From the NCBI GenBank assembly GCA_023262505.1, contig JALRAP010000003.1, positions 3,420-67,419 of the forward strand: a stretch of DNA of 64,000 nt. The letters run 5' to 3'. The notes below the pieces were generated by a model. The model saw nothing but the letters and a program-made list of their open reading frames with translations, had not been told where the DNA came from and made no database searches. Of this stretch, positions 41,530 to 62,588 are shown piece after piece; position 1 is the stretch's first letter; every line of letters begins with the position of its first letter. The stretch is from Bacteroidia bacterium (lineage in GTDB: Bacteria > Bacteroidota > Bacteroidia > AKYH767-A > OLB10). A program made the position numbers and the translations under genes.

Positions 41530-41581
41530 ATCTGAAAATTAGCAGCCTTTCGGCATAATTTACGGATAAAAATACGGATTG

Positions 41582-44234: not shown

Positions 44235-44238
44235 TGTT

Positions 44239-45141
44239 TTATGTCCAAGGTGGCGTAAGCCCTGTTAGCGATTTTATTTTACCGGCTTCCGCTGCGTAAT
44301 AATCATTAATGAAAGAAAGTGTTTGATTATTCACTTCATTTTGTTTTTTGCCGACTGTATTGGACCCGGCAAGCATGCTTTCGAGCTCGTGCGATGCTAA
44401 TTTAAGTTTTTTGCGTATTCCTTTCGGAAGGCGCTGTTTCAGGGGCTTGATGAATCTTTTGAATTTTCGGAAAACGCGTGCGGGAAAGGAAGCCTTTGAT
44501 TCGGAAGATTTGTTGAACACCTTGAATTCATAGCCTGAAAAATATTGAGGATCCAGTCGGGCGAATTGTGCAACTAGCTTGCAAAGGCCTTCCGGATCGC
44601 GCACAAGGTCTTCATAAAAACAAACCAGTATACGGTCTTTCCCCAGCAACTTATAGGCGTCTTCAAGATAGGTGGAGTAACGGCCTTGCTCAAGTGAACG
44701 AAGATGTTGGGGCGGATCCGACTGGTTCTGCTGAATCGTCACAAAGCCTTCCAACGACATATGCTCGTCAATCAAGCCAAGTTGCCGCGCATATTTGTAC
44801 CACGATTCCAATCTGCCTTGTGGCCGGCGTAGTATGAACACCATTTTTGCGTTTGGCAGTTCTTCGGCAATCCTTTTCAATGCATGATGCGAGTACAGGT
44901 AATCCGGGGTCGCTTCCAAATGTGTTTTACCAGGTGTGCTGTTTGGGAACAGCTCATTGAATTCGTGGATGGCTGAATGGTCGCGTTTTTGGGCAACCAA
45001 CTTGTAACCGGCTTCCAGGAAATACCTCGACTCTTTCATAGAACATGCGCAGACTTCAGGATGGAATTCAAAATAATTGAATAGCGAAGTGGTGCCGCAT
45101 TTGGTGCTGCCGCCGATAATCAGGTAGTGGTTACGGTCCAT
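44239..45141 (-). CDS. PAPS-dependent sulfotransferase
   Basis: 5'-PSB loop GGSTKCGTTSL and FILRRPQGRLES 3'-PB-like segment. Confidence 0.8.
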   Translation of the reverse strand: MDRNHYLIIGGSTKCGTTSLFNYFEFHPEVCACSMKESRYFLEAGYKLVAQKRDHSAIHEFNELFPNSTPGKTHLEATPDYLYSHHALKRIAEELPNAKMVFILRRPQGRLESWYKYARQLGLIDEHMSLEGFVTIQQNQSDPPQHLRSLEQGRYSTYLEDAYKLLGKDRILVCFYEDLVRDPEGLCKLVAQFARLDPQYFSGYEFKVFNKSSESKASFPARVFRKFKRFIKPLKQRLPKGIRKKLKLASHELESMLAGSNTVGKKQNEVNNQTLSFINDYYAAEAGKIKSLTGLTPPWT

Positions 45142-46467: not shown

Positions 46468-47318
46468 CCTTCATAGAACCCTTTTCCGTATACAACGAAA
46501 TGCGGGTTTAGCAGTTGTTCTTTGTTGTATTGCAATGGTTGGCCAGTGGCATGTTCGATCACGCTGCAACCTGCCGCTGAGGCGATGGCATCTCCTGCAG
46601 CAATATCCCACTCCATCGTAGGCGCCATCCGTGGATAAACATCCGCTGCACCCTCTGCCACCAGACATAGTTTCAATGAACTGCCCTTGGAAATGACATC
46701 GATTTCCCCATGTATTTCTTTGAGTGAGTCTAAGAAAGACGAAGTATCTGAATTCAGATGAGAGCGGCTCGCTACGGCAGTAACCGTACTGCGGCTGGTA
46801 TGATATGGGAGCGCTTTTGCCGATGACAACAACGAATCGAAATCGTGCATCGCATTTTGAATCAAACTCAAATCTCCGATGCGATGGCTTCCCAGCTGTT
46901 GCCCGCCGAAATAGAGGGTGTTCGTACCAGGAACCAAAATTACGCCCATCGAAGGTCTGTTTCCTTCTATCAATGCGATATTGACGGTGAACTCACCGTT
47001 GCGGTTCAAAAACTCCTTGGTGCCATCCAACGGATCCACCAACCAGAACCTGTTCCAATTTCTGCGTTTCTCATAAACCATCTCGCTGTCTTCTTCACTG
47101 AGCATTGGAATCCGCGTAAGCGCAAGCATGGTTGAGATGATGTCGTGTGAGACCTTGTCGGCCTTGGTAAGCGGCGACAAATCGCTTTTTAGTACCGAGT
47201 CGAAATCGCCGCTTTCGTACACTTCCATAATCGCCTTGCCAGCTTCATAGGCTGCGGCAATAGCTGTTTTCATCAGCTGCACTTCATTCAGGTTATCCAC
47301 GGTTTTCGGGTGTGCCAT
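46464..47318 (-). CDS. cysQ: 3'(2'),5'-bisphosphate nucleotidase
   Basis: Inositol-monophosphatase-fold motifs SEED and WLVDPLDGTKEF. Confidence 0.85.
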   Translation of the reverse strand: MAHPKTVDNLNEVQLMKTAIAAAYEAGKAIMEVYESGDFDSVLKSDLSPLTKADKVSHDIISTMLALTRIPMLSEEDSEMVYEKRRNWNRFWLVDPLDGTKEFLNRNGEFTVNIALIEGNRPSMGVILVPGTNTLYFGGQQLGSHRIGDLSLIQNAMHDFDSLLSSAKALPYHTSRSTVTAVASRSHLNSDTSSFLDSLKEIHGEIDVISKGSSLKLCLVAEGAADVYPRMAPTMEWDIAAGDAIASAAGCSVIEHATGQPLQYNKEQLLNPHFVVYGKGFYEG

Positions 47319-47332
47319 AAGGGGTTTTTATA

Positions 47333-48619
47333 TCAAACAATCATGCCTGCGCCAACCGTTTCATTCGTGCCCTCGTCAATCAGTATCACGCTGCCCGTGA
47401 TGCGGTTTTTGCGATAGCTGTCGAAGAACAGTGGTGCGGTGGTTCGGATATGGATGCGGCCAATGTCATTCATGCCGATGGTTTTGTCAGACTCGTGACG
47501 GTGCAGCGTGTCGATGTCGATCTTGTATCGGATGTCTTTCACCACGCAGCGCACATCACGTGTGGTATGCTTGAGTGCGTACTTGCCTCCGATACTCAAG
47601 GCCTTTTCACTCATCCAACAAACCATGATATCCAAATCCTGCTCCGACTCCGGCATATTGTTTTCGCGTACGAGCATATCACCGCGTGACACATCTACAT
47701 CGGCATCCAGGGTCATGGTAACCGACATCGGCGCGAATGCCTCCTTTACGGTTTCATTAAGCGACAAATCCTTCAATGAATGGATTTCTTTGATTTTTGC
47801 AGTGAACCCGGATGGCAGCACCTTCACCGTGTCTCCCGGCCTGAAGACGCCTCCGGCGATGCGCCCCGCATATCCGCGGAAGTCGTGGTGCTCTTGTGAT
47901 TGCGGACGGATCACATATTGTACAGGAAAGCGGCAGTCAATGTGATTTTCGTCGCTACTGATATGAATGGTTTCCAAAAGGTACATCAAGGTGGCACCTT
48001 TGTACCACTTCATGTTGTTTGATTTTTCAACCACATTGTCGCCATTCAACGCGCTTATGGGAATGAATTGCACGTCTTTCACATCCAGCTTCAGCGAAAG
48101 CTTGCGGTATTCCTCAACGATGTTTTCAAAAACCTCCTGGCTGTAATCCACCAGGTCCATTTTGTTGATGCAAACGATGATGTGTGGGATTTGAAGCAGC
48201 GATGCGATGAATGAATGCCGGTTGGTTTGTTCCACGATGCCTTTGCGAGCATCCACCAATATAAGTGCGAGGTTGGCAGTGGAAGCCCCCGTAACCATGT
48301 TGCGGGTGTATTGGATGTGGCCGGGTGTGTCGGCAATGATGAACTTGCGCTTGGGTGTTGCGAAGTAGCGGTAGGCCACATCGATGGTGATGCCTTGTTC
48401 GCGCTCTGCACGCAAACCGTCGGTCAACAAGGCGAGGTCCACGTGTTCGAAACCTTTCATCTTGCTGGTACGCTCTACGGCTTCAAGTTGGTCGGCGAAA
48501 ATCGATTTGCTGTCGTACAGCAGCCTTCCTATGAGTGTGCTTTTCCCATCGTCAACACTGCCGGCAGTTGTGAACCGCAGCATCTCCATATTCAAGTAAC
48601 TGTTTCCTTTTTTCGACAC
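47333..48619 (-). CDS. cysN: sulfate adenylyltransferase subunit 1 (GTPase)
   Basis: G1 GSVDDGKST, G3 DTPGH, G4 NKMD. 428 aa with no fused kinase domain. Confidence 0.92.
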   Translation of the reverse strand: MSKKGNSYLNMEMLRFTTAGSVDDGKSTLIGRLLYDSKSIFADQLEAVERTSKMKGFEHVDLALLTDGLRAEREQGITIDVAYRYFATPKRKFIIADTPGHIQYTRNMVTGASTANLALILVDARKGIVEQTNRHSFIASLLQIPHIIVCINKMDLVDYSQEVFENIVEEYRKLSLKLDVKDVQFIPISALNGDNVVEKSNNMKWYKGATLMYLLETIHISSDENHIDCRFPVQYVIRPQSQEHHDFRGYAGRIAGGVFRPGDTVKVLPSGFTAKIKEIHSLKDLSLNETVKEAFAPMSVTMTLDADVDVSRGDMLVRENNMPESEQDLDIMVCWMSEKALSIGGKYALKHTTRDVRCVVKDIRYKIDIDTLHRHESDKTIGMNDIGRIHIRTTAPLFFDSYRKNRITGSVILIDEGTNETVGAGMIV

Positions 48620-48636
48620 GGCTTGTGTTTTGTTGA

Positions 48637-49545
48637 TCAGAAATATCCTTGCTTCTTACGGTCTTCCATCGCTGTTTCGGACCGCTTATCGTCGGAACGG
48701 GTACCTCTTTCGGTGACACGTGATGATGCTACTTCGCTGATGATTTCTGCCAAGGTGTTGGCATTCGACATTACAGCGCCGGTGCAGGTCATGTCTCCAA
48801 CGGTGCGGTAACGCACATGCATCATCTCCGGTTTTTCAGTCGGCTTAAGCGGAATGAAATCGGAGGTTGCGAGGATCACGCCATCGCGCACCACGCATTC
48901 GCGGTCGTGCGAGAAATAAATGGAAGGTATGCGCAAATTCTCTTGTGCAATGTACATCCATACATCCATCTCGGTCCAGTTGCTGAGTGGAAACACACGG
49001 AAATGTTCTCCCACGCGTTTCTTGCCGTTCAACAGGTTCCATAGTTCCGGACGCTGGTTTTTCGGATCCCATTGGCCGAAATCGTCGCGATGTGAAAAGA
49101 AGCGTTCTTTGGCGCGTGCTTTCTCTTCATCGCGGCGTGCTCCACCCAAGCAAGCATCAAACTTGTATTGTTCGATGGTATCGAGCAGTGTCACGGTTTG
49201 CAACATGTTGCGGCTGGCGTTGATGCCCTTCTCCTCTGTAACCCGACCAGCATCGATACTTTCTTGTACGGATCCGACTATTAGTTGGGCGCCCGCATCC
49301 TCCACTAGCCAGTCGCGAAACACAATCGTTTCGGGGAAGTTGTGTCCGGTGTCGATATGTACCAATGGAAACGGAATACGTGCAGGATAAAACGCCTTAC
49401 GCGCCAGATGTACCATTACAATGGAATCTTTGCCTCCTGAAAAAAGCAAGGCTGGTCTTTCGAACTGTGCCGCCGTTTCGCGGATCACATAAATGGCCTC
49501 TGACTCGAGGATGCGTAAGTGATTAAGGTTGTATTGAATCATCAA
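48637..49545 (-). CDS. cysD: sulfate adenylyltransferase subunit 2
   Basis: PP-loop FSGGKDS. 302 aa. Confidence 0.95.
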   Translation of the reverse strand: MMIQYNLNHLRILESEAIYVIRETAAQFERPALLFSGGKDSIVMVHLARKAFYPARIPFPLVHIDTGHNFPETIVFRDWLVEDAGAQLIVGSVQESIDAGRVTEEKGINASRNMLQTVTLLDTIEQYKFDACLGGARRDEEKARAKERFFSHRDDFGQWDPKNQRPELWNLLNGKKRVGEHFRVFPLSNWTEMDVWMYIAQENLRIPSIYFSHDRECVVRDGVILATSDFIPLKPTEKPEMMHVRYRTVGDMTCTGAVMSNANTLAEIISEVASSRVTERGTRSDDKRSETAMEDRKKQGYF

Positions 49546-50168
49546 GCGGGTATGATCAGCTTTAATACATGTTGGGCTATATGCGATGACGCATGTTCTA
49601 TGCTTATTTCCGCAGTGCGGATGGTGATTTCAGGATTCTCTGGGTTTTCAAATGGCGAACTGATGCCTGTGAAGTCGGGAATTTCGCCGGCACGGGCTTT
49701 TTTGTAAAGTCCTTTCACGTCCCGTTGCTCGCAGACGTCCACAGGACAATCCACAAACACCTCCACGAATTCGTTCGCCTCCACCAACGAACGTACGAAT
49801 GCCCGGTCTGATTTGAACGGCGAGATGAAGGCAGTCAACACAACAACCCCCGCATCCACAAAGAGCTTGGATACTTCTCCGATTCGTCGGATGTTTTCAT
49901 TGCGACCCTCGGGAGAAAAATCCAAGTTGCTGTTCAGTCCTTGTCGGATGTTGTCCCCATCCAACACATAGGTGTGGATGCCTCTTTCCATCAACAACTG
50001 TTCTACGGCATTGGCCAAGGTGCTCTTGCCAGAACCAGAAAGCCCCGTGAACCAAACCACACATGGCCTATGGCCATTCTGTGTAATGCGGGTTGATTTC
50101 CCGATTTTGTACGCTTGAGGGATGATGTGGGTAGGAGCAGACATTATGGAATTAATCCATGTAGGCAT
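49542..50168 (-). CDS. cysC: adenylyl-sulfate (APS) kinase
   Basis: P-loop GLSGSGKSTLA. 4-nt overlap with cysD. Confidence 0.92.
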   Translation of the reverse strand: MPTWINSIMSAPTHIIPQAYKIGKSTRITQNGHRPCVVWFTGLSGSGKSTLANAVEQLLMERGIHTYVLDGDNIRQGLNSNLDFSPEGRNENIRRIGEVSKLFVDAGVVVLTAFISPFKSDRAFVRSLVEANEFVEVFVDCPVDVCEQRDVKGLYKKARAGEIPDFTGISSPFENPENPEITIRTAEISIEHASSHIAQHVLKLIIPA

Positions 50169-50235: not shown

Positions 50236-51810
50236 TTAACGGCTTTTTACAACACTCAATTTGCCCGTGGCCAATTGGTTGTACCTCGAAACTGCCTTGT
50301 AAAAATACATGCCGGACGAATTGGAATTGTCAGGCACTCGCCAAGTCACATAGCTGCTGCCTTCGATGGGTTCGGGAACAAGTATCTCTTCCGACTTTCG
50401 TCCCGACAAATCGCTGATTTCCAATGTGGATCCGCCCCAAGACTCACCCATAAGACGGATATTGAATACGTCGCTTGATGGGTTGGGATAAGCATACGAA
50501 TGTTGTGGACTTTCCGTGGAGATCGGTGGCAAGCCGGTACTGGTCGCCAATAACGAGTCGCCCGCTAGCAATGCTCCAATGTCGATCAGCTCGTCGCCTG
50601 CCTGATAGGTCGTAAACAGAAATCCATCAAACAGCATCTCATCCGTGGTGTTTAATCCGGCGGTAACCAATTGAGGCGGGTTGTTTGGATTGTTTGGATT
50701 CAACAAGGTGTTATCATAAACATGTCTAGAGAATAATTGATAACCTGCAGGCACTTTCACCAATCTTCTATAGAAGTAATATCCCTGCCATTCAAAATCC
50801 CAATTGTTGATTTTGATGAGCTTGACCGTATCCGTTCCTTGCCAAGCGTAATTGATGATGCTTTTGCATAACTTGTGTGAATGGGGGAAGGCGCCCATGA
50901 CCGAGATTGGTACGGGAAGGGCTTGGAAGGTGGCCGTGAATGGTGTGACGGTATTCGCCGGAATGGCTAAGTTCCAATTTTGCAGAGGGGTTACAGCCTG
51001 TATGGGTCTGATGCCTGTGGTTCCAACAGGATAGAAGTACATGCGGATTTTAGTGCTATCCTGCTGCCCTGCGCTTCCTGCGGGATAATGGATTTGTAAG
51101 ACGATTTTCGATCCTGCCTTGATACGCATACCCAGCTTCAGCGGGGCTTGTCCAGGAGCAACGGTGGGAGGAGCGCCTGGCGCATATCCACCAATGCTGA
51201 AATCACCGGGAGGATTGAAACAGTTTCCAGAAAGATTATTGGTTGTATTGCCAGTGGTGTCTACATTGATGATGACGTGGTGTACGATGGCGGGATTTCC
51301 TGGTACGATTTCAAATGCCCTCAAATACCGGTCTTGTGTAAGATTGGTAGGAAGTGAAAAACACACATAACTGTCGTTGGTGCTTGCATTACTGGTGAAA
51401 GTTGGAATTTGCAATTCCATGCTGGGGACACCTTGTAATTGGTAGTTTCCAAACACGGGTGGAGGGGGAGCAAGTGTGGTGTCACCAGGAGGCGTGTTTG
51501 AATTGATCCAACTGATGATGGCGTTTTTTTCGGAGTCGGTGATGATGCGCTCGGCAAAGAACCTCGAGTAAGAAGTATCAGGTGGCCAAGGAGGCATGGT
51601 GCCGGTTTGCAGCGCGTTTTGAATCAAACTTGCATAGGCGGCGGTTTGGGTGTAGTTGGTGAAAGGGTGATGACCAGGTCCGCCATCGTGGTGGCAAGAA
51701 GCACATCTGTTAAAGAAAATTGGTGCTACGTCTTTGTACTCCAATTGAGCCCAGCTTGGAAGCGCAATAATCAGAAGCAGGATTGCGAGCAAGGATTTTT
51801 TCATTTCCAT
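50236..51810 (-). CDS. T9SS-secreted protein: N-terminal CxxCH (planctomycete-type cytochrome c-like) module + copper type-II monooxygenase-like domain (tentative)
   Basis: Signal peptide. CASCH followed by MPPWPP. His clusters HHVIINV, HYPAGS and HSHKLC. C-terminus GMYFYKAV...KLSVVKSR, typical of T9SS sorting domains. Confidence 0.5.
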   Translation of the reverse strand: MEMKKSLLAILLLIIALPSWAQLEYKDVAPIFFNRCASCHHDGGPGHHPFTNYTQTAAYASLIQNALQTGTMPPWPPDTSYSRFFAERIITDSEKNAIISWINSNTPPGDTTLAPPPPVFGNYQLQGVPSMELQIPTFTSNASTNDSYVCFSLPTNLTQDRYLRAFEIVPGNPAIVHHVIINVDTTGNTTNNLSGNCFNPPGDFSIGGYAPGAPPTVAPGQAPLKLGMRIKAGSKIVLQIHYPAGSAGQQDSTKIRMYFYPVGTTGIRPIQAVTPLQNWNLAIPANTVTPFTATFQALPVPISVMGAFPHSHKLCKSIINYAWQGTDTVKLIKINNWDFEWQGYYFYRRLVKVPAGYQLFSRHVYDNTLLNPNNPNNPPQLVTAGLNTTDEMLFDGFLFTTYQAGDELIDIGALLAGDSLLATSTGLPPISTESPQHSYAYPNPSSDVFNIRLMGESWGGSTLEISDLSGRKSEEILVPEPIEGSSYVTWRVPDNSNSSGMYFYKAVSRYNQLATGKLSVVKSR

Positions 51811-52388: not shown

Positions 52389-52721
52389 ATGGTAAACCTC
52401 GAAAACACAAAAGCCCAGATGCGGAAGGGGGTCCTGGAGTTCTGTACCCTCAGCATCATAGCCAAGGGACAGATATACCCGTCCGACATCATCGCCCAGC
52501 TGCGCAACTCCCAAATGATGGTGGTGGAGGGAACATTGTATCCGTTACTCACCCGCTTGAAAAACGCCGGCCTCATCACATACACTTGGGTAGAGTCGAA
52601 CGCAGGGCCGCCCCGGAAATATTTCACCATCACCGACCAAGGTCAGGCTTTTTTGAAGGAACTCGAATCAACTTGGCAGGAACTGGTGTCATCGGTAAAC
52701 AACACCATCAAACATTCTTAA
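52389..52721 (+). CDS. PadR family transcriptional regulator
   Basis: 110 aa with the EGTLYPLLTRLKNAGLI winged-helix signature. Confidence 0.9.
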   Translation: MVNLENTKAQMRKGVLEFCTLSIIAKGQIYPSDIIAQLRNSQMMVVEGTLYPLLTRLKNAGLITYTWVESNAGPPRKYFTITDQGQAFLKELESTWQELVSSVNNTIKHS

Positions 52722-52732
52722 AACAGCAATAC

Positions 52733-54400
52733 ATGAACAAGACCATTTCAGTTAACATCGGCGGTTTCGTTTTTCATATCGAAGAACAGGCCTATGCCGA
52801 ACTTCGACAATATCTTGAAACCATTTCCAACGGCATCCCAATCAATGAAGGTCGCCAGGAAATCATGTCCGACATTGAAGCGCGCATCGCCGAGATATTC
52901 AAGGATGCCTTGCAAACTTCTAAGAAAGAAGTGGTGGTTGCTGACGATGTGAAATCAGCCATCAACACCATGGGTCGTCCCGAAGAGATTACTGATCCGT
53001 TTCAACAATCATCGGAGCAAAAAGAAAATACGGAATCAACTACCTTCTCGAGGCCATATAAGATGCTTTATCGCGATGGCGACGAGCGCATCATAGGAGG
53101 TGTATGCTCCGGACTAGGACATTACTTCGGCATCAATCCTTTGCTTTTCAGGGCAGCCTTTGCCATTGCGTTTGTTTTCTGGGGCTCCGGATTGCTGTTA
53201 TATATCATACTGTTGTTAATCATCCCCAAAGCCAAAACCACTGCAGAGAAATTGGAGATGCGCGGCCGTCCGGTAAATCTGAAGGAGATCCGCAAGAACA
53301 TGGAGGAGGAATTCGGAGAAATTGGTAGAAGCGCAGAGGCGGGATATAGCAAGATGGAGTCGGAAATAAAAAACAGCAACTGGAAAGGTCGTGTCAATGG
53401 CTTTTTCGATATGCTGGGAGTTTTGCTGACGCGCTTCTTCAAGATCGTAGCCAAATTCTTCGCGATCATAGTATGGTTTGTATCCGTGGTTTTGCTGGTG
53501 GGTGTTACGGCGGCCGTCATCGCCAAATTGTTCGGCTCGGAGAACGTAACAGTAATGGACATCAACGGAATGGAGTTTTTCGAAGGCAACAATGCCAATT
53601 TGTTCGTGATCGGGATCTGTTTGCTCATTGGTGTTCCAGCATTTGCACTGACATACATCACCACCAAGTACATCTTTGGCATCAAAAAATCATTCAAGCC
53701 GATGCCTTGGTTGCTTTCGGTTCTTTTCCTAGTAGGATTGATTTGTTTAATCATCGCATCCATCCAAACTGCCAGTGATTTCAAATCGAAATCATCCGTC
53801 ACCAACCCCATTCCAATTGCACAGCCAAAATCCGACACATTGGTTGTTTCCATGGCGAATGGGAATCCGGATGAGGATTTTTGGGAGGGTGAGGAAATTC
53901 AAATACATACCCCGTTTTTCTCCGACTCAATAGATGCCGGAAGTGTCAAATGGGAATTGTTGTCGGCCTCAACAGATTCTTTCCAACTGGAAGAGACCCG
54001 CACATCCCGAGGTAAAAACATGGAAGAAGCCAAGGACAATAGCTCCAAGGTGATTTACAAGATGACCCAAACAGGCGATACCCTGATGTTGGAACCGAAT
54101 TTTGATTTGCAGGATCAAGCAAAATTCAGATTTCAAAAGATGCGTATTGGTGTGAAAGTGCCTAAGGGGAAATCCATTCTTGTCACAGAATCCGCAGCCA
54201 AATACTTGCGCAGAGTGGAAGGATACAACGGGGACATGGAGTCTTATAACTTAGTTGGGGTTTGGACGAACGGACCTGATGGACTGCAATGCGCCGAATG
54301 TGAGCCATCACATCCATCCGCAAAGCATGGCAAGAAGTCATCCACCATTATGGAAATACGTGTGGATACCTCCGGTGTCACGATTAAAAAGGAGGAGTAG
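52733..54400 (+). CDS. PspC domain-containing membrane protein
   Basis: GGVCSGLGHYFGINPLLFRAAFAIAF PspC motif. Start at ATG 52733 (MNKTISVNIGGF). The listed ORF start 52367 overlaps padR and is rejected. Confidence 0.8.
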   Translation: MNKTISVNIGGFVFHIEEQAYAELRQYLETISNGIPINEGRQEIMSDIEARIAEIFKDALQTSKKEVVVADDVKSAINTMGRPEEITDPFQQSSEQKENTESTTFSRPYKMLYRDGDERIIGGVCSGLGHYFGINPLLFRAAFAIAFVFWGSGLLLYIILLLIIPKAKTTAEKLEMRGRPVNLKEIRKNMEEEFGEIGRSAEAGYSKMESEIKNSNWKGRVNGFFDMLGVLLTRFFKIVAKFFAIIVWFVSVVLLVGVTAAVIAKLFGSENVTVMDINGMEFFEGNNANLFVIGICLLIGVPAFALTYITTKYIFGIKKSFKPMPWLLSVLFLVGLICLIIASIQTASDFKSKSSVTNPIPIAQPKSDTLVVSMANGNPDEDFWEGEEIQIHTPFFSDSIDAGSVKWELLSASTDSFQLEETRTSRGKNMEEAKDNSSKVIYKMTQTGDTLMLEPNFDLQDQAKFRFQKMRIGVKVPKGKSILVTESAAKYLRRVEGYNGDMESYNLVGVWTNGPDGLQCAECEPSHPSAKHGKKSSTIMEIRVDTSGVTIKKEE

Positions 54401-54480: not shown

Positions 54481-55047
54481 TCAAAACGCCGCATCCAAAT
54501 CCAAGCAGATGCTTTTGATATCGGGGTCGTGTATGGCTTGAGCTTTTATTTTTTCGAAAAGTTCTGGACGGAAACGTTTAGCCCTAAGTGTTACAAACAA
54601 TAGGAATTCAATTCCTTTTTGGAAATATGCCTTAGGCGAGGACTCTTCCTTTATCGCAATATTTCGGTATTCCTTCTCGTACGCGGTAGCGAATGACGTC
54701 AAAGAACTATGTTCGTCGAAATTTTGGTACCAATGACCTTCAACATGGATAAAAGAATCCAAGGCATCTATGACTTGCTCAGGGGCTTCCAACGCAATTT
54801 TATTCAGATCATATACTTTGGAAATTTTCAACTCTTCCCATAATGTGAATACACCTAATGTGTATCCAATAGACCATTTCAAATCTTCCTGTTTTTGGGT
54901 CTTGAGGTACTTGTTCGACGGATGGTTCCAGATGTTGTAGCACAAAGTGCCGAACATCTTTTCCCATGGACGCATGGCGCCCAAGCGGGATTTGATCAAT
55001 GCTCCGAGCTTGCGGAGTTCTTCTTGATTGAATTCATTTTTTTCCAT
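54481..55047 (-). CDS. hypothetical protein (last gene of MoxR/vWA/MAT-like operon)
   Basis: 188-aa ORF starting 13 nt after the MAT-like gene. No TM segment or catalytic motif recognised. Confidence 0.6.
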   Translation of the reverse strand: MEKNEFNQEELRKLGALIKSRLGAMRPWEKMFGTLCYNIWNHPSNKYLKTQKQEDLKWSIGYTLGVFTLWEELKISKVYDLNKIALEAPEQVIDALDSFIHVEGHWYQNFDEHSSLTSFATAYEKEYRNIAIKEESSPKAYFQKGIEFLLFVTLRAKRFRPELFEKIKAQAIHDPDIKSICLDLDAAF

Positions 55048-55060
55048 TTTGATTTTTGTT

Positions 55061-56173
55061 TTAAAGGTTCATAATCTGTTTGCTGGCCAAGGTCTTTACT
55101 GGACTGCACCAGGATAATGTGTCATTGTAGAAGGTTCCTAATCCGGATAGTTGATATTCGAGATCCGACTCGTTTACCCTTTCGCGCATATTGTCGAAGT
55201 GGAAATAATCATGCGCATCAAGCGTAGGTCTACGGTCTGTTTTCAAGTCGATCATTAATGGCGCTGCCATGCCTGGTGCAAAGCATATCCGCACCAGCGC
55301 CTCTTGGGCTCCATTCCGTACCAGTTCCAATGCAAAGCGCCTGGCTTGGAAAGCACCAAGTCGGTCGATGTGGTACAGGTCTTTGCCATAAATGGCTCCT
55401 CCTCCAATGGCAATCCGTGGACCGTAATAATCCATTACCAGTTTGCGGCCGGTCTGTCCATTGTCTGCGGCACTACCGCCATTCACCAACGGACCATTCG
55501 GATTTACGATTAGTTGAATCTCATCCCACCGGCCAATCCAACGGTGGTCGTGTTGGCGTAGTTTTTTCCATGCTTGATGAAGCACCTGTTCGACACGTTC
55601 TGTGAGTTCATAAAACGACAAAGATTCCTGCTGCTGGAGTGTAACCAGTATGGTTTGGGGCTTCCATCCATCGTGTTCCTCAAACATTGTAATCAGCACT
55701 TTCCCATCTGGACCTTGGTCTTGCAGCAAGCCTCTTTCGATGGAATCCATAAGCGAATCGCGTAGATGCCATACCAGGAATTGTTCGGGAGGAAGAAAAC
55801 GGGTTTTGGCATCATATCCCGCATATCCAGTAACTATATTTTGGTCGCCTGAGAAACCGGTCCACTTGCGTGGATTTCCAACGACCTTGCAGATTTCATC
55901 GATGATGACATAATCCGTAGCTTTCACACAATTCCTGTTGGTGTAACCGATCTCTTCTCCCAACTCCACCACCAATTCACGGATTGGTATGGTTACTGGG
56001 TTCTTTGTGACCCATGCTCCGGTCAGGAAAATCTTGTTCGACCAAACGGAAACTTCGATCTGGGCATATGCTCCGGTTTCTTTCCTGTAAAGTTCACGGA
56101 TGATGCGGTCGGCCAGCAAATCGCAAAACTTGTCGGGGTGGCCGTTCAAGACAGCCTCGGCAAAATGTTTCAT
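55061..56173 (-). CDS. divergent S-adenosylmethionine synthetase (methionine adenosyltransferase, MetK-fold) homologue
   Basis: GHPDKFCDLLADRI, GDQNIVTGYA, GPDGK, VNPNGPLVNGGSAADNGQTGRK and GGGAIYGKDLYHIDR align with MetK motifs GHPDK, GDQG, PDxK, TGRK and GGGAFSGKD. 370 aa. Confidence 0.8.
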   Translation of the reverse strand: MKHFAEAVLNGHPDKFCDLLADRIIRELYRKETGAYAQIEVSVWSNKIFLTGAWVTKNPVTIPIRELVVELGEEIGYTNRNCVKATDYVIIDEICKVVGNPRKWTGFSGDQNIVTGYAGYDAKTRFLPPEQFLVWHLRDSLMDSIERGLLQDQGPDGKVLITMFEEHDGWKPQTILVTLQQQESLSFYELTERVEQVLHQAWKKLRQHDHRWIGRWDEIQLIVNPNGPLVNGGSAADNGQTGRKLVMDYYGPRIAIGGGAIYGKDLYHIDRLGAFQARRFALELVRNGAQEALVRICFAPGMAAPLMIDLKTDRRPTLDAHDYFHFDNMRERVNESDLEYQLSGLGTFYNDTLSWCSPVKTLASKQIMNL

Positions 56174-57480
56174 TTATCAATTGGTTTTAGGTGGTATGCG
56201 GCAATTCCGATGGAGTTGAACATATCGGCTTTTCCGTCTGGGGTTATGATGGCGGAGATATTCCGCTTTTCTACACCATGCAATTCTCCGATGCCGATGT
56301 TTTCCACATAGCCATCCGTTACGATCAATGCTTTTTTGAATTTTTTCTTTTCCATATGTTCGAAAACGGATTCCAATACCGTCCCATTGGTGGTTTCACA
56401 GTTCAAAACTCCGTTTTTGAATTTGGCAGGTACTACCTCGGTAGAGAATGTCCAAATCGGTAGCCGTATTTGTTGGTTGAATTTCTGTATCAATGGCATC
56501 AGATGGGGTAACACCTTGTCCATGGACGCGCTCACATCTATGTAAATGTTCATAAGCTCGCCAGGCAAACCGTTGGCCACTTCCATCCTGGACATCGGCA
56601 GTAGACTGGATGCGTATAGCAGCGCAAAGGCTCTGCGATCTTGATTTGAAATGAATGGCATCAGGGCCTGCGAACCCTTGTCTTTTTTGGCCTTCGGGTC
56701 AGGTTGCAAGCATCTCAAAAGCAATGGCAGTGTAGCCCTTTTCCATGCATGGAGCTTTGCCTTTTCCATTTTTTTACCGATGATGTTCAGCTCGTTCTTG
56801 TTGCCGGATGTTTTTGCCTTTCCGAAAAATGCACCCGTATTGAGGTTTTTGAAAATATCGCTCAACAGCCTGCGGTTTTCGTCTGAAATCTCCTCGAACT
56901 GGCCACGATGATCTCCAATGAAAAAAATATGATATAACTCCAACTTTGTATTGACAAGAGACTGGGCCAACTCATGAACATCCTCGGCAGATATTTCCCC
57001 ATTGTAGACTTTTTCGTGTAAATCCACAATTCGATGATCCCGAAAACTTGATCTGGATTCACAATGATCGAATGGGCGTAATAGTTGTTGCAGGCCCACA
57101 GGCGCATATATGTTTTTGAAGAAATTTGAAAATCTTGGGCCATGTACCCGATGTATGATGCTGTTGATGACTGTATCCAAGGCCAAATTCAAAAGAAAAG
57201 TCATTTTTTTGAATTTGTTGGTGTGTTCCAAAAGCACGTGTAGGAACTCGTGCAGTAGTACGGCCTTCAAGTCGTCTTCATTTCGGCAGCAATTGTTCAC
57301 AAAATGCGGATTGATGTATAATGTAGGATTGCTCTTCAGGCTGACCGCCAACGTTCTCACGTCAACTGTTAATTGTACCTCCGCAATCCTGTAAAGCGCC
57401 CTTGTTGCAAACAGGTTTTCATCTGCCAGATCCAGCATGACCTGGGTTATTTTATTCTTCGTCCATTCCATAGTATTCAC
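56170..57480 (-). CDS. HExxH metallopeptidase-like N-domain + vWA-like C-domain protein (DUF2201-type architecture)
   Basis: HEFLHVLLEH motif and a MIDAS-like YIDVSASMDK in the C-terminal half. ATGA overlap with the MAT-like gene. Alternative start at ATG 57438. Confidence 0.7.
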   Translation of the reverse strand: MNTMEWTKNKITQVMLDLADENLFATRALYRIAEVQLTVDVRTLAVSLKSNPTLYINPHFVNNCCRNEDDLKAVLLHEFLHVLLEHTNKFKKMTFLLNLALDTVINSIIHRVHGPRFSNFFKNIYAPVGLQQLLRPFDHCESRSSFRDHRIVDLHEKVYNGEISAEDVHELAQSLVNTKLELYHIFFIGDHRGQFEEISDENRRLLSDIFKNLNTGAFFGKAKTSGNKNELNIIGKKMEKAKLHAWKRATLPLLLRCLQPDPKAKKDKGSQALMPFISNQDRRAFALLYASSLLPMSRMEVANGLPGELMNIYIDVSASMDKVLPHLMPLIQKFNQQIRLPIWTFSTEVVPAKFKNGVLNCETTNGTVLESVFEHMEKKKFKKALIVTDGYVENIGIGELHGVEKRNISAIITPDGKADMFNSIGIAAYHLKPIDK

Positions 57481-57862
57481 GGGTATTTAATTCGATCAAT
57501 CTCACGCTGCGATTCAAACGATTCTGGGTGCAGATCATCGGGCTGTTTGGCCAATAGCGATTCGTGTTGGATTTGCTCAATATCATGGCTGCCCTGAGCA
57601 TGGATTTCTTGTCTATCGGAGATTCGAAATCCTGCAAGGTTGGGAACAACAACATGGTTTTTGCAGGCAGATTCAACGCTTTTCCGGCCTCCTCCCAATC
57701 CTTGTATCCACAGGCATGCAGCAGTTTCTCCATCCACTTTTCCAAATCCGCTGTTTTTTTCGGTGGTTTCAATGAAACGATTTCACAAAGCACCCCTTGG
57801 CTTTCGCCCTCGAAAATGGATTCATACACCTTTTCAGTTTTTACAACAGATCTTGGTCCCAT
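57452..57862 (-). CDS. hypothetical protein
   Basis: 136-aa ORF, 7 nt after the MoxR-like gene, overlapping the next gene by up to 29 nt. No motif recognised. Confidence 0.5.
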   Translation of the reverse strand: MGPRSVVKTEKVYESIFEGESQGVLCEIVSLKPPKKTADLEKWMEKLLHACGYKDWEEAGKALNLPAKTMLLFPTLQDFESPIDKKSMLRAAMILSKSNTNRYWPNSPMICTQNRLNRSVRLIELNTREYYGMDEE

Positions 57863-57869
57863 GCTGATT

Positions 57870-59324
57870 TCAGGATTTTGCTTCTTTTAGGAAGCGGGTT
57901 ACCTTGTCAAAGCATATGTTCAATTCCTCCTCCAAAGTCGCCGCATCGCTGATGGTTTCGAATTTCAACAGTAGGTAAAGGATCAGCTGCTTGGCCCGTT
58001 TCTTGCGAAGCGTGTTTTTCTTCGGGAAGGAGTTGATCAGTTTTTGGCATTCAGCCCAAATGGGATGTTTGTCGCTTTTGATTTCCTGGTTCACCATTTC
58101 CTTCCATTTCAATTCGCCATTCACCTCCATGATTTCGGATGTGATCTTCAACATGTCGCTCAACGCATCCTCAGTCAGCATCGACTGGGAACTTAGTGCA
58201 GGGTAAGCGGAAAAACAGAAAATGGCTCTGCTCTCGTGATCCATCCTCATCATTTTTTGGATTACGGCGATGCTCTTGGTGTCTTTGTCGATTTGGGCTT
58301 CGAACAGCATGTCGATGCAAGTTGCCACCTGCTCTGTTTTTAAAAACTCAGCTACCCAGGATTGTGCTTCATCACCAGCCAAAACCAAGCGAGCCGCCTC
58401 CGCGTGTGCGGTGTCTATTTGGTGCTGTGCCACTTGTTCCCGATATGCCCGATGCGGAACGCTCCAGGTCAAGGTGAGTTTGAACAAGCTCATCAATTGT
58501 TTTTCGTCCAGCTCACCTTTCAATTCTTGGACCACACAAGCAACCGCGGTGATGTTGCGTGCAAGCAATCGAGCTCGGCGCGGAGAAATCCGCATACCGG
58601 CTTCATGCAAAAACGATGTGACCAAACGAACGTAGTTGACCGTTCGCTTATCTGGGTTTTGTATGGCCTCTTCGAATACGGGTTTCAATTTGTATACAAA
58701 ATCATACAGGCCCCCATTGTCATTCGAAAGGGCGTTCTCCCCAGCGGGATCAATCACGCCTAACTGTTCATCTTTTTTCAAGTCGGGCCAATCGGGCACC
58801 TCTATGATGAATGCGAATCGGTCGGCTAATGCCTGATCCAATGCCTGGCTGCCTTCGTAATGGTCGTCGTCGCCATTCATTTGGAATGGATTCATGGCCG
58901 CCCAGCGATAGGTCAGCTTTTCAAGAGCGATGCCCTGAATTTTCCGCTCGTGTACGATTGAGAAAAATTTGTTTTGGCTTTCTGGTTTGCACCGGCTGAG
59001 CTCATCCACTAAAACTGATTGGGCGCCCCATACGGTAGCCGGTGTTTGAAGGAATCGGATGGAGTTCCCATCCGCATCCGGAGCGGGGAATCCGATCAGG
59101 TCATCGAACGAAATCAGACTCGCATTGTAATGCCGATGCTCCAGTCGCATGGCTTCCGAGATGCTGTTCAGTAAAAATGTTTTTCCGGTGCCGGCTTCTC
59201 CGATGAGTAGTATCGGGTCTTCCGATACCAATGCGGCCAAAATGAGTGGTTCAACTTCGTCGAAGCCGAACACGCCGAGTTTCCTCAGAAACCCTTTCGA
59301 TTTTGTTGGTTGCTTTTTTTCCAT
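57870..59324 (-). CDS. MoxR-like AAA+ ATPase with ~270-aa helical C-terminal extension
   Basis: Walker A GEAGTGKT, Walker B VLVDELSR, sensor-1 AAMNP, DRF, sensor-2 ISPRRARLLARNI. Confidence 0.85.
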   Translation of the reverse strand: MEKKQPTKSKGFLRKLGVFGFDEVEPLILAALVSEDPILLIGEAGTGKTFLLNSISEAMRLEHRHYNASLISFDDLIGFPAPDADGNSIRFLQTPATVWGAQSVLVDELSRCKPESQNKFFSIVHERKIQGIALEKLTYRWAAMNPFQMNGDDDHYEGSQALDQALADRFAFIIEVPDWPDLKKDEQLGVIDPAGENALSNDNGGLYDFVYKLKPVFEEAIQNPDKRTVNYVRLVTSFLHEAGMRISPRRARLLARNITAVACVVQELKGELDEKQLMSLFKLTLTWSVPHRAYREQVAQHQIDTAHAEAARLVLAGDEAQSWVAEFLKTEQVATCIDMLFEAQIDKDTKSIAVIQKMMRMDHESRAIFCFSAYPALSSQSMLTEDALSDMLKITSEIMEVNGELKWKEMVNQEIKSDKHPIWAECQKLINSFPKKNTLRKKRAKQLILYLLLKFETISDAATLEEELNICFDKVTRFLKEAKS

Positions 59325-59858
59325 GTTGCAGTTTTTTTGGCTGCATCACGGAATAAAACGGACAGGAAATGTGGTGGGTGAACATTTTTGGCATTCCTTG
59401 CCCGCATCGTTCGGCCACCGTGGTGTTCCACTCGGTTGGCACCCATTTAAGGGTTCGTGATGCTGCCGCAAAGTTACGGCGATTTTCAAAAATCCAACAT
59501 CCAAACAAAAATATTTTTAGAAACGCCTGATGATGAGACCCATAAATTTTGGCTGTTACACAATAATATGTGTGTGGACATTTTCAACATTTCAATGCTC
59601 AAACACAGAAGTGCATCGCAATGGTAAGCGGGCAATCAGTGCCCAAAGGACGAAACAGGGGCATATTCCCCATGCCCTAATTTTCAAGACCATTTCCTAA
59701 TTTCGCCTTGATACCGCCTAGGTTAAATTAGATGGCGCGGTTGTTTCGCAATTTACGGGTCTGGAGTGCGATTCTCCAGTCGACCCTGCAAAAACAAATG
59801 AATAAGAGTCGTGAATCATCTATATCCAAACAATAATAATCCCAAACAACATCCAAAC

Positions 59859-62588
59859 ATGAAAAACCTCTTTAGGTTGCTTCTCTGTGCGCTGCTGATG
59901 GCGCCAATCGTAACATCGGCCCAAAAGAAACCGGCCGCTGCTCCGGTAAAAGTCACTTCCGTGGAAGGCATCACCGAGTACCAATTGGCGAACGGCATGA
60001 AAGTGCTTCTGTTCCCCGACCCTTCCAAATCCACCATCACCGTTAACATCACCTACCTGGTGGGCTCACGCCACGAAGGATATGGCGAAAGCGGCATGGC
60101 CCACTTGTTGGAGCACATGGTTTTCAAAGGAACACCTAAGCATCCCAACATCCCACAAGAATTAACGGCGCACGGTGCAAGGCCTAATGGAACGACTTGG
60201 CTCGACCGCACCAACTATTTCGAAACATTCAACGCTACCGAAGAAAACCTGCGTTGGGCACTTGACATGGAGTCTGACCGTATGATCAATTCCTTCATAG
60301 CTAAAAAGGATTTGGAGAGCGAATTCTCAGTTGTGAGAAATGAATTCGAATCTGGTGAGAACGACCCAAGCGGAGTATTGATGGAGCGTGTGATGTCTAC
60401 GGCTTATCTGTGGCACAATTACGGAAAGTCAACTATCGGCTCTCGTGAAGATATCGAGCGTGTGCCTATCGAGAACCTCCAGGCTTTTTATAAGAAGTTT
60501 TATCAGCCCGACAACGCAGTGTTGATGGTGGCTGGCAAAATCGACGAGGCCAAGACATTGCAAATGGTGAATGAGTATTTCGGAGTCATTCCCAAGCCAA
60601 CGCGTGTGCTGCAGCCTACTTATACCGTTGAGCCTACCCAAGACGGCGAGCGCCATGTGGTGCTGCGTCGTGTTGGTGATGTGCAAGTGGCCGCTATGGG
60701 ATACCATGTGCCTGCCGGTGCTCATCCTGATTACCCAGCAGTTGATTTGTTGACAGACATCCTTACCAACGAGCCTTCCGGCCGCTTGTACAAGGCCTTA
60801 GTTGAAACCAAGATGGCCACCAGTGTTGGCGGATTCGCCTTCGAACTCAAGGATCCTGGTTATGCCTATTTCACCGCAGACGTACTCAAGGAGAAATCAC
60901 TTGATGAGGTGATGAATACCATGCAGTCGATCATGGATAATTTGAAAGACAACCCAGTCACACCTGCCGAAGTTGAGCGCGCCAAAAACAAATCACTCAA
61001 GTTTTTCGAACAAACTTACAATAACAGTGAGCGTGTGGGTTTGACACTATCCGAATACATCGCCAAAGGCGATTGGAGATTATTCTTCCATCAGCGTGAT
61101 ATGACCGAGAAAGTCACTGCCGCAGATGTGAACCGTGTTGCTGCCGCTTATTTCAAGCCTTCCAACCGCACCACTGGAAAATTCATTCCTGATGCGGCAC
61201 CTGATCGCGCTGTGATTACCGCAGCTCCAGATCCTGCTGCGTTGCTCAAGGATTACAAAGGGAAACAAGCACTCAAACAAGCCGAGGATTTTGAAGCCAC
61301 TCCAGATAATATCGCACAGCGCACCGTAAAAGGAGAGATATCCGGCGGCGCCAAGTATGCTTTCTTGAAAAAGACCACCCGTGGTGGAACCGTCAACGTA
61401 TCGATGACTTTGCGCATTGGCAGTGTGGCTGCTTTACAAGGTAAGTCAACCGTTGCCGATATGACCGCTGCGATGTTGCGTCGCGGAACCGCGAGAATGA
61501 GCATGGAGCAGATCAACGATGCGTTCGACAAAATGAAATCCAGCGTGAGTATATACGGATCCGGTCAAACGGTGAGTGTAAGCATCTCAACTACGGCTGA
61601 GCAATTGGAAAACACGTTGAAGCTTGTTCAGGAAATACTTCGTACCCCCTCCTTCCCACAAGCCGAACTGAGCAAGTTAGTAGACGAAGAATTGGCCGAC
61701 ATCGAAAAGCAGCGTAGCGAGCCGCAAAGCATTGCAGGACTTGAATTTTCACGCATCATGAAATCTTATCCTAAAAACGATTTCCGTTATGCAATGGATT
61801 TCGATGAGCAGGTGGCATCGGTAAAGGCGGTTACAATCGACCAGATCAAGAAGCTTTACCAGGATATGTACAACAGCACCAACGCTACGGTTGCCATCGT
61901 TGGCGACTTTGACGACAAAGCCATATTGGGTGTGTTGAAGCAAATGCTGGGCGATTGGAAATCACCGGTGGCATATGAGCGTGCCGTTGACACATACACC
62001 GCATCCAAACCTGGCACCAAGAAAATCAACACGCCTGATAAGACCAACGCCATGATGATGGCTGGTTTGAATGTCGAGTTCAAAGATGATAATGACGATA
62101 TGGCCGCCATGGTTATCGGCAACTACATCCTGGGCGGTGGATTCCTCAATTCCCGTCTGGCAGTCCGCATCCGTCAGAAGGAAGGTATCAGCTACGGTGT
62201 AGGATCGCAATTTCAACCCGGACAACTTGATAACTCCGGCATGTTCATGTCTTTTGCCATATACAATCCTGAAAACTCAGAGAAATTGGTTGCTTGCTTG
62301 CGCGAGGAACTGAAGCGCATCGTGAACGATGGCATTACCGAGCAAGAGTTGAAGGACGCTTCCAGTGGTTACCTACAAAGCCGCAAGGTGAGCCGTTCCC
62401 AAGACCGTGAACTAGTAGGAAGATTGAATAACTATCTGTTCCTGAATCGCGACATCTTCTGGGATCGCGACTTGGAATACCGCGTTACCAAACTCGATGT
62501 TAAACAAGTGAACGACGCCCTGAAGCGTTGGATCAAGCCCGACGATATCTACGTGGTAGAAGCAGGCGAGTTTGAGAAGAAGAAATAA
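59859..62588 (+). CDS. secreted M16 (pitrilysin) family zinc peptidase, two-unit fusion
   Basis: Inverted zinc motif HLLEHMVFKGT. Signal peptide MKNLFRLLLCALLMAPIVTSAQ from ATG 59859. About 909 aa. Confidence 0.9.
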   Translation: MKNLFRLLLCALLMAPIVTSAQKKPAAAPVKVTSVEGITEYQLANGMKVLLFPDPSKSTITVNITYLVGSRHEGYGESGMAHLLEHMVFKGTPKHPNIPQELTAHGARPNGTTWLDRTNYFETFNATEENLRWALDMESDRMINSFIAKKDLESEFSVVRNEFESGENDPSGVLMERVMSTAYLWHNYGKSTIGSREDIERVPIENLQAFYKKFYQPDNAVLMVAGKIDEAKTLQMVNEYFGVIPKPTRVLQPTYTVEPTQDGERHVVLRRVGDVQVAAMGYHVPAGAHPDYPAVDLLTDILTNEPSGRLYKALVETKMATSVGGFAFELKDPGYAYFTADVLKEKSLDEVMNTMQSIMDNLKDNPVTPAEVERAKNKSLKFFEQTYNNSERVGLTLSEYIAKGDWRLFFHQRDMTEKVTAADVNRVAAAYFKPSNRTTGKFIPDAAPDRAVITAAPDPAALLKDYKGKQALKQAEDFEATPDNIAQRTVKGEISGGAKYAFLKKTTRGGTVNVSMTLRIGSVAALQGKSTVADMTAAMLRRGTARMSMEQINDAFDKMKSSVSIYGSGQTVSVSISTTAEQLENTLKLVQEILRTPSFPQAELSKLVDEELADIEKQRSEPQSIAGLEFSRIMKSYPKNDFRYAMDFDEQVASVKAVTIDQIKKLYQDMYNSTNATVAIVGDFDDKAILGVLKQMLGDWKSPVAYERAVDTYTASKPGTKKINTPDKTNAMMMAGLNVEFKDDNDDMAAMVIGNYILGGGFLNSRLAVRIRQKEGISYGVGSQFQPGQLDNSGMFMSFAIYNPENSEKLVACLREELKRIVNDGITEQELKDASSGYLQSRKVSRSQDRELVGRLNNYLFLNRDIFWDRDLEYRVTKLDVKQVNDALKRWIKPDDIYVVEAGEFEKKK

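Follow-up and report, generated by a model that had tools for sequence, protein, structure and literature searches.

We analyzed 64,000 nucleotides of Bacteroidia bacterium contig JALRAP010000003.1 (assembly GCA_023262505.1) and refer to this whole stretch as the window; on its minus strand, five genes follow one another head to tail. In order, they encode an AAA+ ATPase of the AAA_5/MoxR type (484 aa; 57870..59324), a small protein (136 aa; 57452..57862), a protein in which an HExxH metallopeptidase-like N-terminal domain precedes a C-terminal von Willebrand factor A (vWA) domain (436 aa; 56170..57480), a protein that resembles the S-adenosylmethionine (SAM) synthetase MetK (370 aa; 55061..56173), and a fifth open reading frame (ORF) of 188 aa (54481..55047). 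The MetK-like gene, which was flagged in an initial annotation and is the subject of this analysis, is the terminal core gene of a conserved, translationally coupled four-gene cassette that stands behind a SAM riboswitch. The riboswitch in front of the operon, which is the most informative feature of the locus, and the cassette context were both absent from that annotation. SAM is the universal methyl donor. MetK has long passed for its sole source in bacteria and for a housekeeping enzyme that hardly varies.

The assignment of the 370-aa product of ORF 55061..56173 to the MetK fold was confirmed by Pfam, by matches in the PDB and by an AlphaFold2 model. The start codon of the gene overlaps the preceding stop codon by 4 nt (ATGA). 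Among the Pfam domains of MetK, the N-terminal (45.5 bits) and C-terminal (68.8 bits) domains scored above their cut-offs and the middle domain fell just under its own (27.4 bits against 29), and the top sequence matches in the PDB were MetK or methionine adenosyltransferase (MAT) enzymes, with E values of ~1e-30 over residues 5-312. The AlphaFold2 model, which was built from 42 relatives (pLDDT 91, pTM 0.90), superposed over its full length on solved MetK structures with a TM-score of 0.82 across ~375 columns at 22-26% identity. However, the protein did not reach the cut-off of the MetK equivalog model TIGR01034 (144.2 bits; cut-off 309.4). Its identity to E. coli MetK was 24%; the E. coli sequence, which is 100% identical to PDB 7ll3_A, served as the numbering reference. 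As canonical controls we used 13 MetKs, namely the E. coli enzyme, ten enzymes of other phyla and two phage MetKs. Mean identity between the MetK-like family and these controls was 25.5%, whereas the canonical enzymes share 54% with one another and the members of the family (clade 1) share 58%. A protein search with the flagged sequence returned >100 relatives of ~355-375 aa and 45-87% identity, whose NCBI labels read only 'methionine adenosyltransferase domain-containing protein' or 'hypothetical'. The flagged ORF encodes a full MetK-fold, strongly diverged paralogue that belongs to a separate clade and is not a drifting housekeeping copy. The initial annotation had anticipated this divergence, and identity to canonical MetKs is indeed ~25% rather than >50%. 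It had also remarked on the shortness of the protein, which is not unusual given that the canonical MetKs here measure 373-393 aa. A gating loop 7 aa shorter than that of MetK was considered as a further family feature and rejected, as this difference is true against E. coli only and the loops of the other canonical enzymes are just 2 aa longer than those of the family.

The catalytic motifs GHPDK, DQ, PDGK, TGRK and GGGA..GKD..H.DR were all found in the right order in the flagged protein, in agreement with the initial reading, and every triphosphate, metal and catalytic position is present. In 121 relatives, H14, D16, E42, D118, Q119, D163, K165, R244, K245, K265 and D271 (E. coli numbering) were invariant. 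Near-invariance was seen at K17 (Lys in 109, Arg in 10) and at D238, which was kept in 120 of the 121 and replaced by Asn in one. The positions that surround methionine differed in the same set. E55 was replaced by Gly, Ala, Ser or Phe and was never Glu (A53 in the query), and Q98 by Leu, Ile, Val or Met (V97). K269, the second Lys of the GKDPSK motif, whose replacement had already been noticed in the initial annotation, was His in 120 of the 121 (His268), and Pro and Asn occupied the I302 and T/S227 positions in all 121 (P300 and N226 in the query). The adenine-stacking F230 was Leu in 88 relatives. All 13 canonical controls keep E55, Q98, F230, K269 and I302. K269H is only one among several pocket changes, and three of the substituted methionine-contact positions (H268, P300 and N226) are themselves invariant or nearly so within the family. 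We also count K269 and the pocket residue I302 among the methionine-contacting positions. For E55, Q98, D238 and F230, which correspond to Glu70, Gln113, Asp258 and Phe250 of human MAT2A, the roles of the residues have been described (PMC6850014). As read from these alignments, the residues with which MetK binds Mg-ATP and triphosphate, cleaves the C5'-O5' bond and hydrolyzes tripolyphosphate are kept in the MetK-like protein, and those that hold the amino, carboxylate and methyl groups of methionine are replaced, as is, in part, the adenine-stacking Phe. Since the triphosphate residues are conserved and the methionine contacts are replaced, the protein would be expected to handle a nucleoside triphosphate in the manner of MetK and its second substrate differently. 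The replacement of the methionine-contact positions, with H268, P300 and N226 invariant or nearly so in their own right, and the distinct, MoxR/vWA-linked clade would fit an altered acceptor. The residue pattern thus supports the earlier suggestion of a specialised paralogue that keeps an adenosyltransferase-type site and may have a changed substrate.

The ATPase, MIDAS and HExxH partners encoded upstream look functional, as judged from their conserved residues. The ATPase matched the Pfam families AAA_5 (32 bits) and AAA_3 (28 bits), its profile matched midasin and MoxR (2r44) in the PDB, and its Walker A (GTGKT) and Walker B (DE) motifs were invariant in 29 orthologues; the C-terminal half of ~300 aa is specific to the family. 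In the HExxH/vWA protein, the N-terminal domain resembles DUF2201_N (a weak Pfam match of 21.5 bits), and residues H77, E78, H81 and H86 of its HExxHxxxxH motif were invariant across orthologues, as were D315, S317, S319, T367 and D389 of a complete metal ion-dependent adhesion site (MIDAS) in the vWA domain. A profile search of the PDB with the alignment of this protein returned no match. Its AlphaFold2 model (pLDDT 85.7) was compared with known structures using Foldseek, which gave only weak matches (best E 0.013), led by NorD of the NorQD complex and followed by the MIDAS domain of Rea1 and integrin I domains. The small protein matched nothing in Pfam, PADLOC, NCBIfam, PHROG or the PDB profile search, and its alignment revealed conserved GGPxSRxR and FYxxD motifs near the N-terminus and at the C-terminus, respectively.

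The order ATPase, small protein, HExxH/vWA protein, MetK-like protein and the spacing of the genes were kept in each fetched locus with sufficient upstream DNA, which amounts to ~150 loci from >15 phyla. The initial annotation had asked whether the paralogue forms a separate clade associated with MoxR/vWA genes, and this linkage was seen in all loci with enough upstream DNA. Reading frames for the small protein and the vWA protein overlap in 30 of 31 loci, and the vWA stop codon and the MetK-like start codon share an ATGA in 30 of 55. The fifth ORF, which starts 14 nt downstream of the MetK-like gene, is a lineage-specific accessory: its homologues occur only in the nearest relatives, L010 and L012 (loci are given L numbers where they need to be told apart), and scans of Pfam, PADLOC, NCBIfam and PHROG returned no family match. 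Elsewhere its position is taken by different genes or by none, and a search across loci for a recurrent fifth or flanking gene found none. For example, an N-formylglutamate amidohydrolase-family gene overlaps the MetK-like stop codon at L001 9101-9880, and a WYL/HTH regulator lies downstream of the cassette at L021 8253-9254.

The leader of the operon contains a SAM-I/IV aptamer (59374..59468, minus strand) ~50 nt upstream of the ATPase start codon. It scored 52.5 bits against Rfam RF01725 (gathering threshold 41.1; E 1e-7) and 84.9 bits against a purpose-built covariance model, R1. A gathering scan of the whole 64-kb window with Rfam reported no RNA, and the aptamer was recovered by a 701-nt scan focused on the leader; fast filters can therefore lose true riboswitches, and gathering negatives on long inputs are unreliable. 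Directly 5' of the riboswitch is TAACTTTG (59469..59476, minus strand), a putative promoter motif read from the sequence as the Bacteroidota -7 type, whose consensus we take to be TAnnTTTG. Motifs of the TAACTTTG type stand at the equivalent place in an alignment of other Bacteroidota-type leaders. Next to the start codon lies an 8-nt candidate expression-platform segment, CGUGAUGC (59343..59350, minus strand), which is complementary to the 5' strand of P1, GCAUCACG (59456-59463). In the ligand-free minimum free energy fold of 59310-59475 (-53.2 kcal/mol, z -2.96), the two strands are base-paired with each other, and a search of the leader between aptamer and start codon for a terminator-like site found none. 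The pairing of CGUGAUGC with GCAUCACG is a plausible expression platform, through which the predicted switching would operate.

We then took a census of aptamers in the 62 non-redundant clade-1 loci that include the ATPase gene and >=250 nt of upstream sequence. Calls were made with Rfam and with three covariance models built from Rfam hits; some of the aptamers counted score below the Rfam gathering threshold or come from our own narrow models, and these were accepted owing to their exact expected position. A SAM aptamer was located directly upstream of the ATPase gene in 45 of the 62 loci, and another 9 have one further upstream on the same strand, which in 6 of these 9 precedes a linked canonical metK. 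The aptamers at cassette leaders belong to the SAM-I/IV, SAM-I and SAM-II/SAM_alpha classes. In a sister clade of MetK-like proteins, which is described below, SAM-I-like or SAM-II-like aptamers were found in at least 25 of ~53 loci. The presence of unrelated riboswitch classes at one position across phyla is strong evidence for selected expression at low SAM. The cassette would accordingly be expressed when SAM is low, with predicted SAM binding and repression at the aptamer.

Several leaders differ from this simple arrangement. Two or three SAM aptamers stand in tandem or close together upstream of the cassette at L011 605-1339, L014 258-1149 and L017 971-1337, and likewise at L067 3485-3793, L059 2591-2759 and L074 2993-3710; these may be true tandem riboswitches or relics of a lost upstream metK. 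At L045 2063-3708, ~1.5 kb separate a SAM-II aptamer from the ATPase gene, and a 148-aa ORF in the gap (2682-3128) resembles a small inserted element encoding a GxxExxY-type protein on a reading of its sequence. On a Bacteroidota-like contig of the sister clade, the ~160-nt leader at L170 3379-3549 has a strong hairpin after a TAACTTTG promoter-like motif, and it did not match our SAM-I/IV, SAM-I or SAM-II models. The cultured cassette carrier Cnuella takakiae has a weak SAM-I/IV-like match (17.7 bits) where the aptamer is expected.

A pattern scan of 185,579 species genomes identified 363 clade-1 loci in many phyla, including Bacteroidota, Ignavibacteria, Verrucomicrobia, Acidobacteria and Proteobacteria, and further Chloroflexi, Cyanobacteria, Elusimicrobia and Gemmatimonadota. 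The sister clade was revealed by an exhaustive profile-free search of 1.84 billion representatives, from which a signature table was then drawn up. In this second, larger group, E55 is replaced by Arg, Q98 by Asp, Glu or Gly, I302 by Pro, and TGRK by SGKK, and K269 is kept; intermediates between the two signatures exist. Its members reside in the same four-gene cassette, and at least 586 loci were counted in the same 185,579 genomes, in Verrucomicrobia, Planctomycetota, Lentisphaerae, Kiritimatiellia, Firmicutes, Actinobacteria, Chloroflexi and others. The wider family is marked by the change of I302 to Pro together with the cassette context, and the E55, Q98 and K269 positions are clade-dependent.

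A canonical metK, whose product is 53-58% identical to E. coli MetK, is located just upstream of the cassette on the same strand in 10 loci, and several of these metK-linked loci have separate aptamers for metK and for the cassette. At L018 3046-3617, a truncated canonical metK (a 131-aa N-terminal fragment) with its own SAM-I/IV aptamer lies directly upstream of the cassette aptamer, which hints at an older aptamer-metK-aptamer-cassette arrangement in decay. We considered whether the linked MetKs form a cassette-specific clade and rejected this, since they split into at least three groups and the 80 closest relatives of one of them lack the cassette wherever the flank is long enough. In the deltaproteobacterial locus L040, a canonical metK, a PNP_UDP_1 protein and three unknown genes precede the cassette (861-1577), and no aptamer was detected in the visible part of the locus. 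The PNP_UDP_1 family includes methylthioadenosine and S-adenosylhomocysteine nucleosidases, and this region is possibly a larger SAM-cycle gene cluster, as its gene content would suggest. An HD_4-domain protein is encoded between metK and the ATPase gene at L062 3049-3513.

We also inspected the surroundings of the cassette. The flanks of 17 loci encoded 121 proteins of 117 different Pfam families with no recurrent neighbor, a tally for which there is no background rate for comparison. Among these proteins are four integrases, a transposase, specificity subunits of type I restriction-modification systems and the products of a few defence-like genes (PD-Lambda-2_B-like, DRT-like and AbiEii-like), each in some flanks only, and housekeeping genes, such as those for phosphoenolpyruvate carboxykinase (PEPCK), glucose-6-phosphate dehydrogenase (G6PD) and IlvD, are found there too. 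With no fixed neighborhood and mixed flanks, the cassette is best described as an accessory, mobile unit. Scans of all five operon proteins with PADLOC, NCBIfam and PHROG returned no named system. The best PADLOC-DB v2 hits (E 3e-4 to 8e-3) covered short P-loop or chance stretches, and no model was convincing.

In the window itself, a cluster on the minus strand (40510-50168) encodes an adenosine 5'-phosphosulfate (APS) kinase, a PAPS_reduct-domain protein (CysD-like), a GTPase (CysN-like) and an inositol-monophosphatase-family (CysQ-like) protein, together with a polysaccharide flippase, two sulfotransferases and a glycosyltransferase. Its gene content suggests synthesis of 3'-phosphoadenosine 5'-phosphosulfate (PAPS) and probable sulfation of a polysaccharide. 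We rejected these genes as sulfur metabolism related to the cassette, as they constitute a polysaccharide-sulfation cluster that is not conserved beside the cassette elsewhere. Between this cluster and genes for PadR-like and PspC-like proteins lies a minus-strand gene (50236-51810) for a 524-aa protein that begins with a signal-like sequence and matched no Pfam family at E<=1e-5. On the plus strand, 52389-54400 reads as a small PadR-like regulator and, after it, a long membrane protein (up to 677 aa in the ORF list, counted from an upstream TTG), and 59811-62588 as a 925-aa M16-type peptidase-like protein, which also adjoins the cassette in the close relative L010.

On a narrow balance of probability, we favor the explanation that the MetK-like protein and its cassette serve SAM homeostasis, with a SAM-starvation-induced, adenosyltransferase-type enzyme whose acceptor pocket is remodelled and which receives NorQ/NorD-like service from its partners. 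Low SAM would let the cassette be expressed through the riboswitch. The MetK-like enzyme, to go by its conserved motifs, would remain a nucleoside-5' (adenosyl) transferase or tripolyphosphatase that handles the acceptor differently, and the acceptor might be a sulfur nucleophile other than free L-methionine, or methionine bound in a new way. Induced under starvation, the enzyme could thereby supply SAM, or a SAM-like sulfonium compound, by a back-up or salvage pathway. By analogy with the action of NorQ/NorD or CbbQ/CbbO on their clients, the target of the ATPase and vWA protein may be the MetK-like protein or canonical MetK. The client would be docked through the MIDAS site, ATP-driven remodelling might help it to assemble, to take up metal or to let go of a tightly bound product, and the HExxH domain might process a partner. 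More tentatively, and with the weight of probability against it, the cassette may be a widespread SAM-starvation response with new MetK-fold chemistry, in which the adenosyl or nucleosyl group of a nucleoside triphosphate passes to an acceptor other than free L-methionine, or an immune module that uses a metabolite riboswitch as its infection sensor. Such chemistry might, for instance, use a different thioether or a thiol, methionine in a keto or N-blocked form, or a residue within a protein as its acceptor. The reaction would open a new route to SAM or a SAM surrogate and would need a dedicated NorQ/NorD-like AAA+/vWA activase bearing a peptidase domain.

Several observations weigh against SAM homeostasis as the function of the cassette. 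No aptamer was detected with Rfam and the covariance models in 8 of the 62 clade-1 loci, and a simple back-up SAM synthase does not explain the ATPase, the vWA protein, the peptidase domain or the small protein. The cassette is patchy (363 clade-1 and at least 586 clade-2 loci in 185,579 species genomes), and such patchiness, together with integrase, transposase and defence neighbors, is more typical of accessory or conflict systems. The pocket also differs by clade, with Ala or Gly, a hydrophobic residue and His in one and Arg, Asp/Glu/Gly and Lys in the other, which argues against one shared small acceptor at that site; water as the acceptor, a protein-bound acceptor or no second substrate at all could account for clade-specific pockets. 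Moreover, because the Q113A mutant of MAT2A keeps ~75% of its activity (PMC6850014), methionine may still serve as the substrate in spite of the pocket changes.

Phage SAM lyases and MetK inhibition lower SAM, and an unlikely alternative to SAM homeostasis is that the cassette is an anti-phage or conflict system alarmed by SAM depletion, in which phage SAM lyases or MetK inhibitors would cause the riboswitch to de-repress the genes. The MetK-like protein could then be an effector that uses up ATP or produces a toxic or signalling nucleoside, a source of SAM that is insensitive to the inhibitor and rescues methylation-based immunity, or a MetK decoy over which the ATPase, vWA and peptidase components keep watch. 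The sporadic, cross-phylum distribution and the integrase, transposase, restriction-modification and defence-like genes in some flanks speak for such a role. However, SAM riboswitches are known for their characteristic control of genes of methionine and SAM metabolism, and we therefore rank SAM homeostasis first and a defence triggered by SAM depletion second. None of the five operon proteins found a convincing PADLOC match (best E 3e-4), and the flanks mostly have nothing in common (117 Pfam families among 121 proteins), with housekeeping genes in their number. MoxR-vWA pairs form the core of predicted conflict systems, but the systems described there have other third components, with no mention of a SAM synthetase (Kaur, Burroughs, Iyer, Aravind 2020, PMC7159879). 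It is quite unlikely that the MetK-like protein is instead mainly a non-catalytic or half-site partner that co-assembles with canonical MetK, an enzyme with active sites formed by two subunits, and would recruit it to the ATPase, vWA and peptidase components for reactivation, regulation or turnover at low SAM. In 11 loci the cassette does directly follow a canonical metK or its remnant, which often has a SAM aptamer to itself, and the full MetK fold is retained. Furthermore, each site draws E55 and Q98, which are changed, from one subunit and D238, which is retained, from the other (PMC6850014), so that a mixed dimer might keep one near-canonical site. Yet the invariance of all triphosphate, metal and catalytic residues over hundreds of sequences is difficult to reconcile with a pure adaptor, a linked canonical metK is missing from most loci, and the nearest relatives of one linked MetK lack the cassette in 80 fetched loci.

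Two further explanations for the MetK-like protein appeared weaker still. A module for protein modification, similar to those for ribosomally synthesized and post-translationally modified peptides (RiPPs), is very unlikely; here the enzyme would adenosylate the small protein or another polypeptide, the HExxH peptidase would process it and the AAA+/vWA pair would handle it. This would account for the conserved small protein that is always encoded between the ATPase and peptidase/vWA genes and for the invariant HExxH motif, and pocket positions for the methionine amino and carboxylate groups that are unconserved between clades would fit an acceptor held by protein-protein contacts. However, the small protein has neither an invariant Met or Cys nor a hypervariable core, a transporter or other typical RiPP gene is not present, and control by a SAM riboswitch would go unexplained. 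We rate as least probable of all that the flagged gene is simply the organism's own housekeeping SAM synthetase, unusually diverged. Although the MetK fold and catalytic motifs are there and SAM-riboswitch control is typical of metK, this explanation has to contend with the TIGR01034 score (144 bits against a cut-off of 309), the 25% identity to canonical MetKs compared with 54% among these, the replaced methionine-contact residues, the obligate membership of a four-gene cassette and the neighboring canonical metK in 10 loci.

The two clades of MetK paralogues with a remodelled acceptor pocket occur in at least ~950 species-level genomes and >15 phyla, always in the cassette, and three unrelated classes of SAM riboswitch before it point to a selected function in coping with low SAM. 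The cassette would thus be a new member of the SAM regulon that is open to test, with the cultured carrier Cnuella takakiae making experiments feasible. A new adenosyl-transfer reaction is possible and might be of value for the biocatalytic production of SAM analogues, and the MetK-like protein may represent a new class of client for MoxR/vWA chaperones. Should the cassette prove to act in defence, a metabolite riboswitch would be gating a defence system, and we know of no precedent for this.

We then compared the cassette with known systems. Like the MetK/MAT enzymes (EC 2.5.1.6; TIGR01034; Pfam S-AdoMet_synt_N/M/C), the flagged protein has a three-domain fold (TM 0.82) and identical triphosphate, Mg/K and catalytic residues (GHPDK, E42, DQ, PDGK, D238, GRK, GGGA..GK and DR), and like metK, which is often under SAM-riboswitch control, the cassette has a SAM aptamer in its leader. 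Unlike them, the MetK-like protein shares only ~25% identity, has replaced E55, Q98, K269, I302, T/S227 and mostly F230, and is always encoded with AAA+ ATPase, small-protein and peptidase/vWA genes, in several loci alongside a canonical metK. Phage MetKs (PHROG 1569; Streptococcus and other temperate phages) are of similar length, and the PHROG profile scored 151 bits against the query. However, the two that we inspected share 46-48% identity with E. coli MetK, have E55, Q98, K269 and I302 in place, unlike the query, and are encoded next to replication and DNA-methylase genes with no ATPase or vWA partner. We therefore rejected them as members of the same family, as they are canonical-type enzymes in methylase or replication contexts.

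The ATPase/vWA activase pairs NorQ/NorD, CbbQ/CbbO, CoxD/CoxE and RavA/ViaA resemble the cassette in that a Walker-intact AAA+ ATPase stands beside a MIDAS-complete vWA protein and a candidate client enzyme, and NorD, in the NorQD complex (9qhe), was the best, though weak, structural match of the cassette vWA domain. Unlike these pairs, the cassette has a vWA protein with an N-terminal HExxH domain, an ATPase with a long unique C-terminal half, an extra small protein and riboswitch control, and its client would be MetK-like; we know of no ATPase/vWA activase pair with such a client. The MoxR-vWA ternary conflict systems (PMC7159879) likewise consist of a MoxR-vWA core and a third conserved component, and share the patchy, horizontally spread look of the cassette. 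Their third component is a VMAP, iSTAND, FtsH or beta-propeller protein, with SAM synthetase unmentioned (PMC7159879), whereas the third conserved enzyme of the cassette is MetK-like; a SAM riboswitch belongs to the cassette and to none of those systems. The cassette ATPase reached 15.6 bits against the bpMoxR family of Pfam, whose cut-off is 27.

No description of the cassette combination and the MetK paralogue clades was found in the searchable literature, nor of an AAA+ ATPase, a vWA/peptidase protein and a MetK paralogue as members of a SAM-riboswitch regulon. In its regulation the cassette is similar to the SAM regulons (SAM-I, RF00162; SAM-I/IV, RF01725; SAM-II, RF00521), with an aptamer in the coding-strand 5' leader and independent classes at one position across phyla. 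The combination is apparently undescribed, and its parts come from known families: the MetK superfamily, the AAA_5/MoxR-vWA pairs and the SAM riboswitches.

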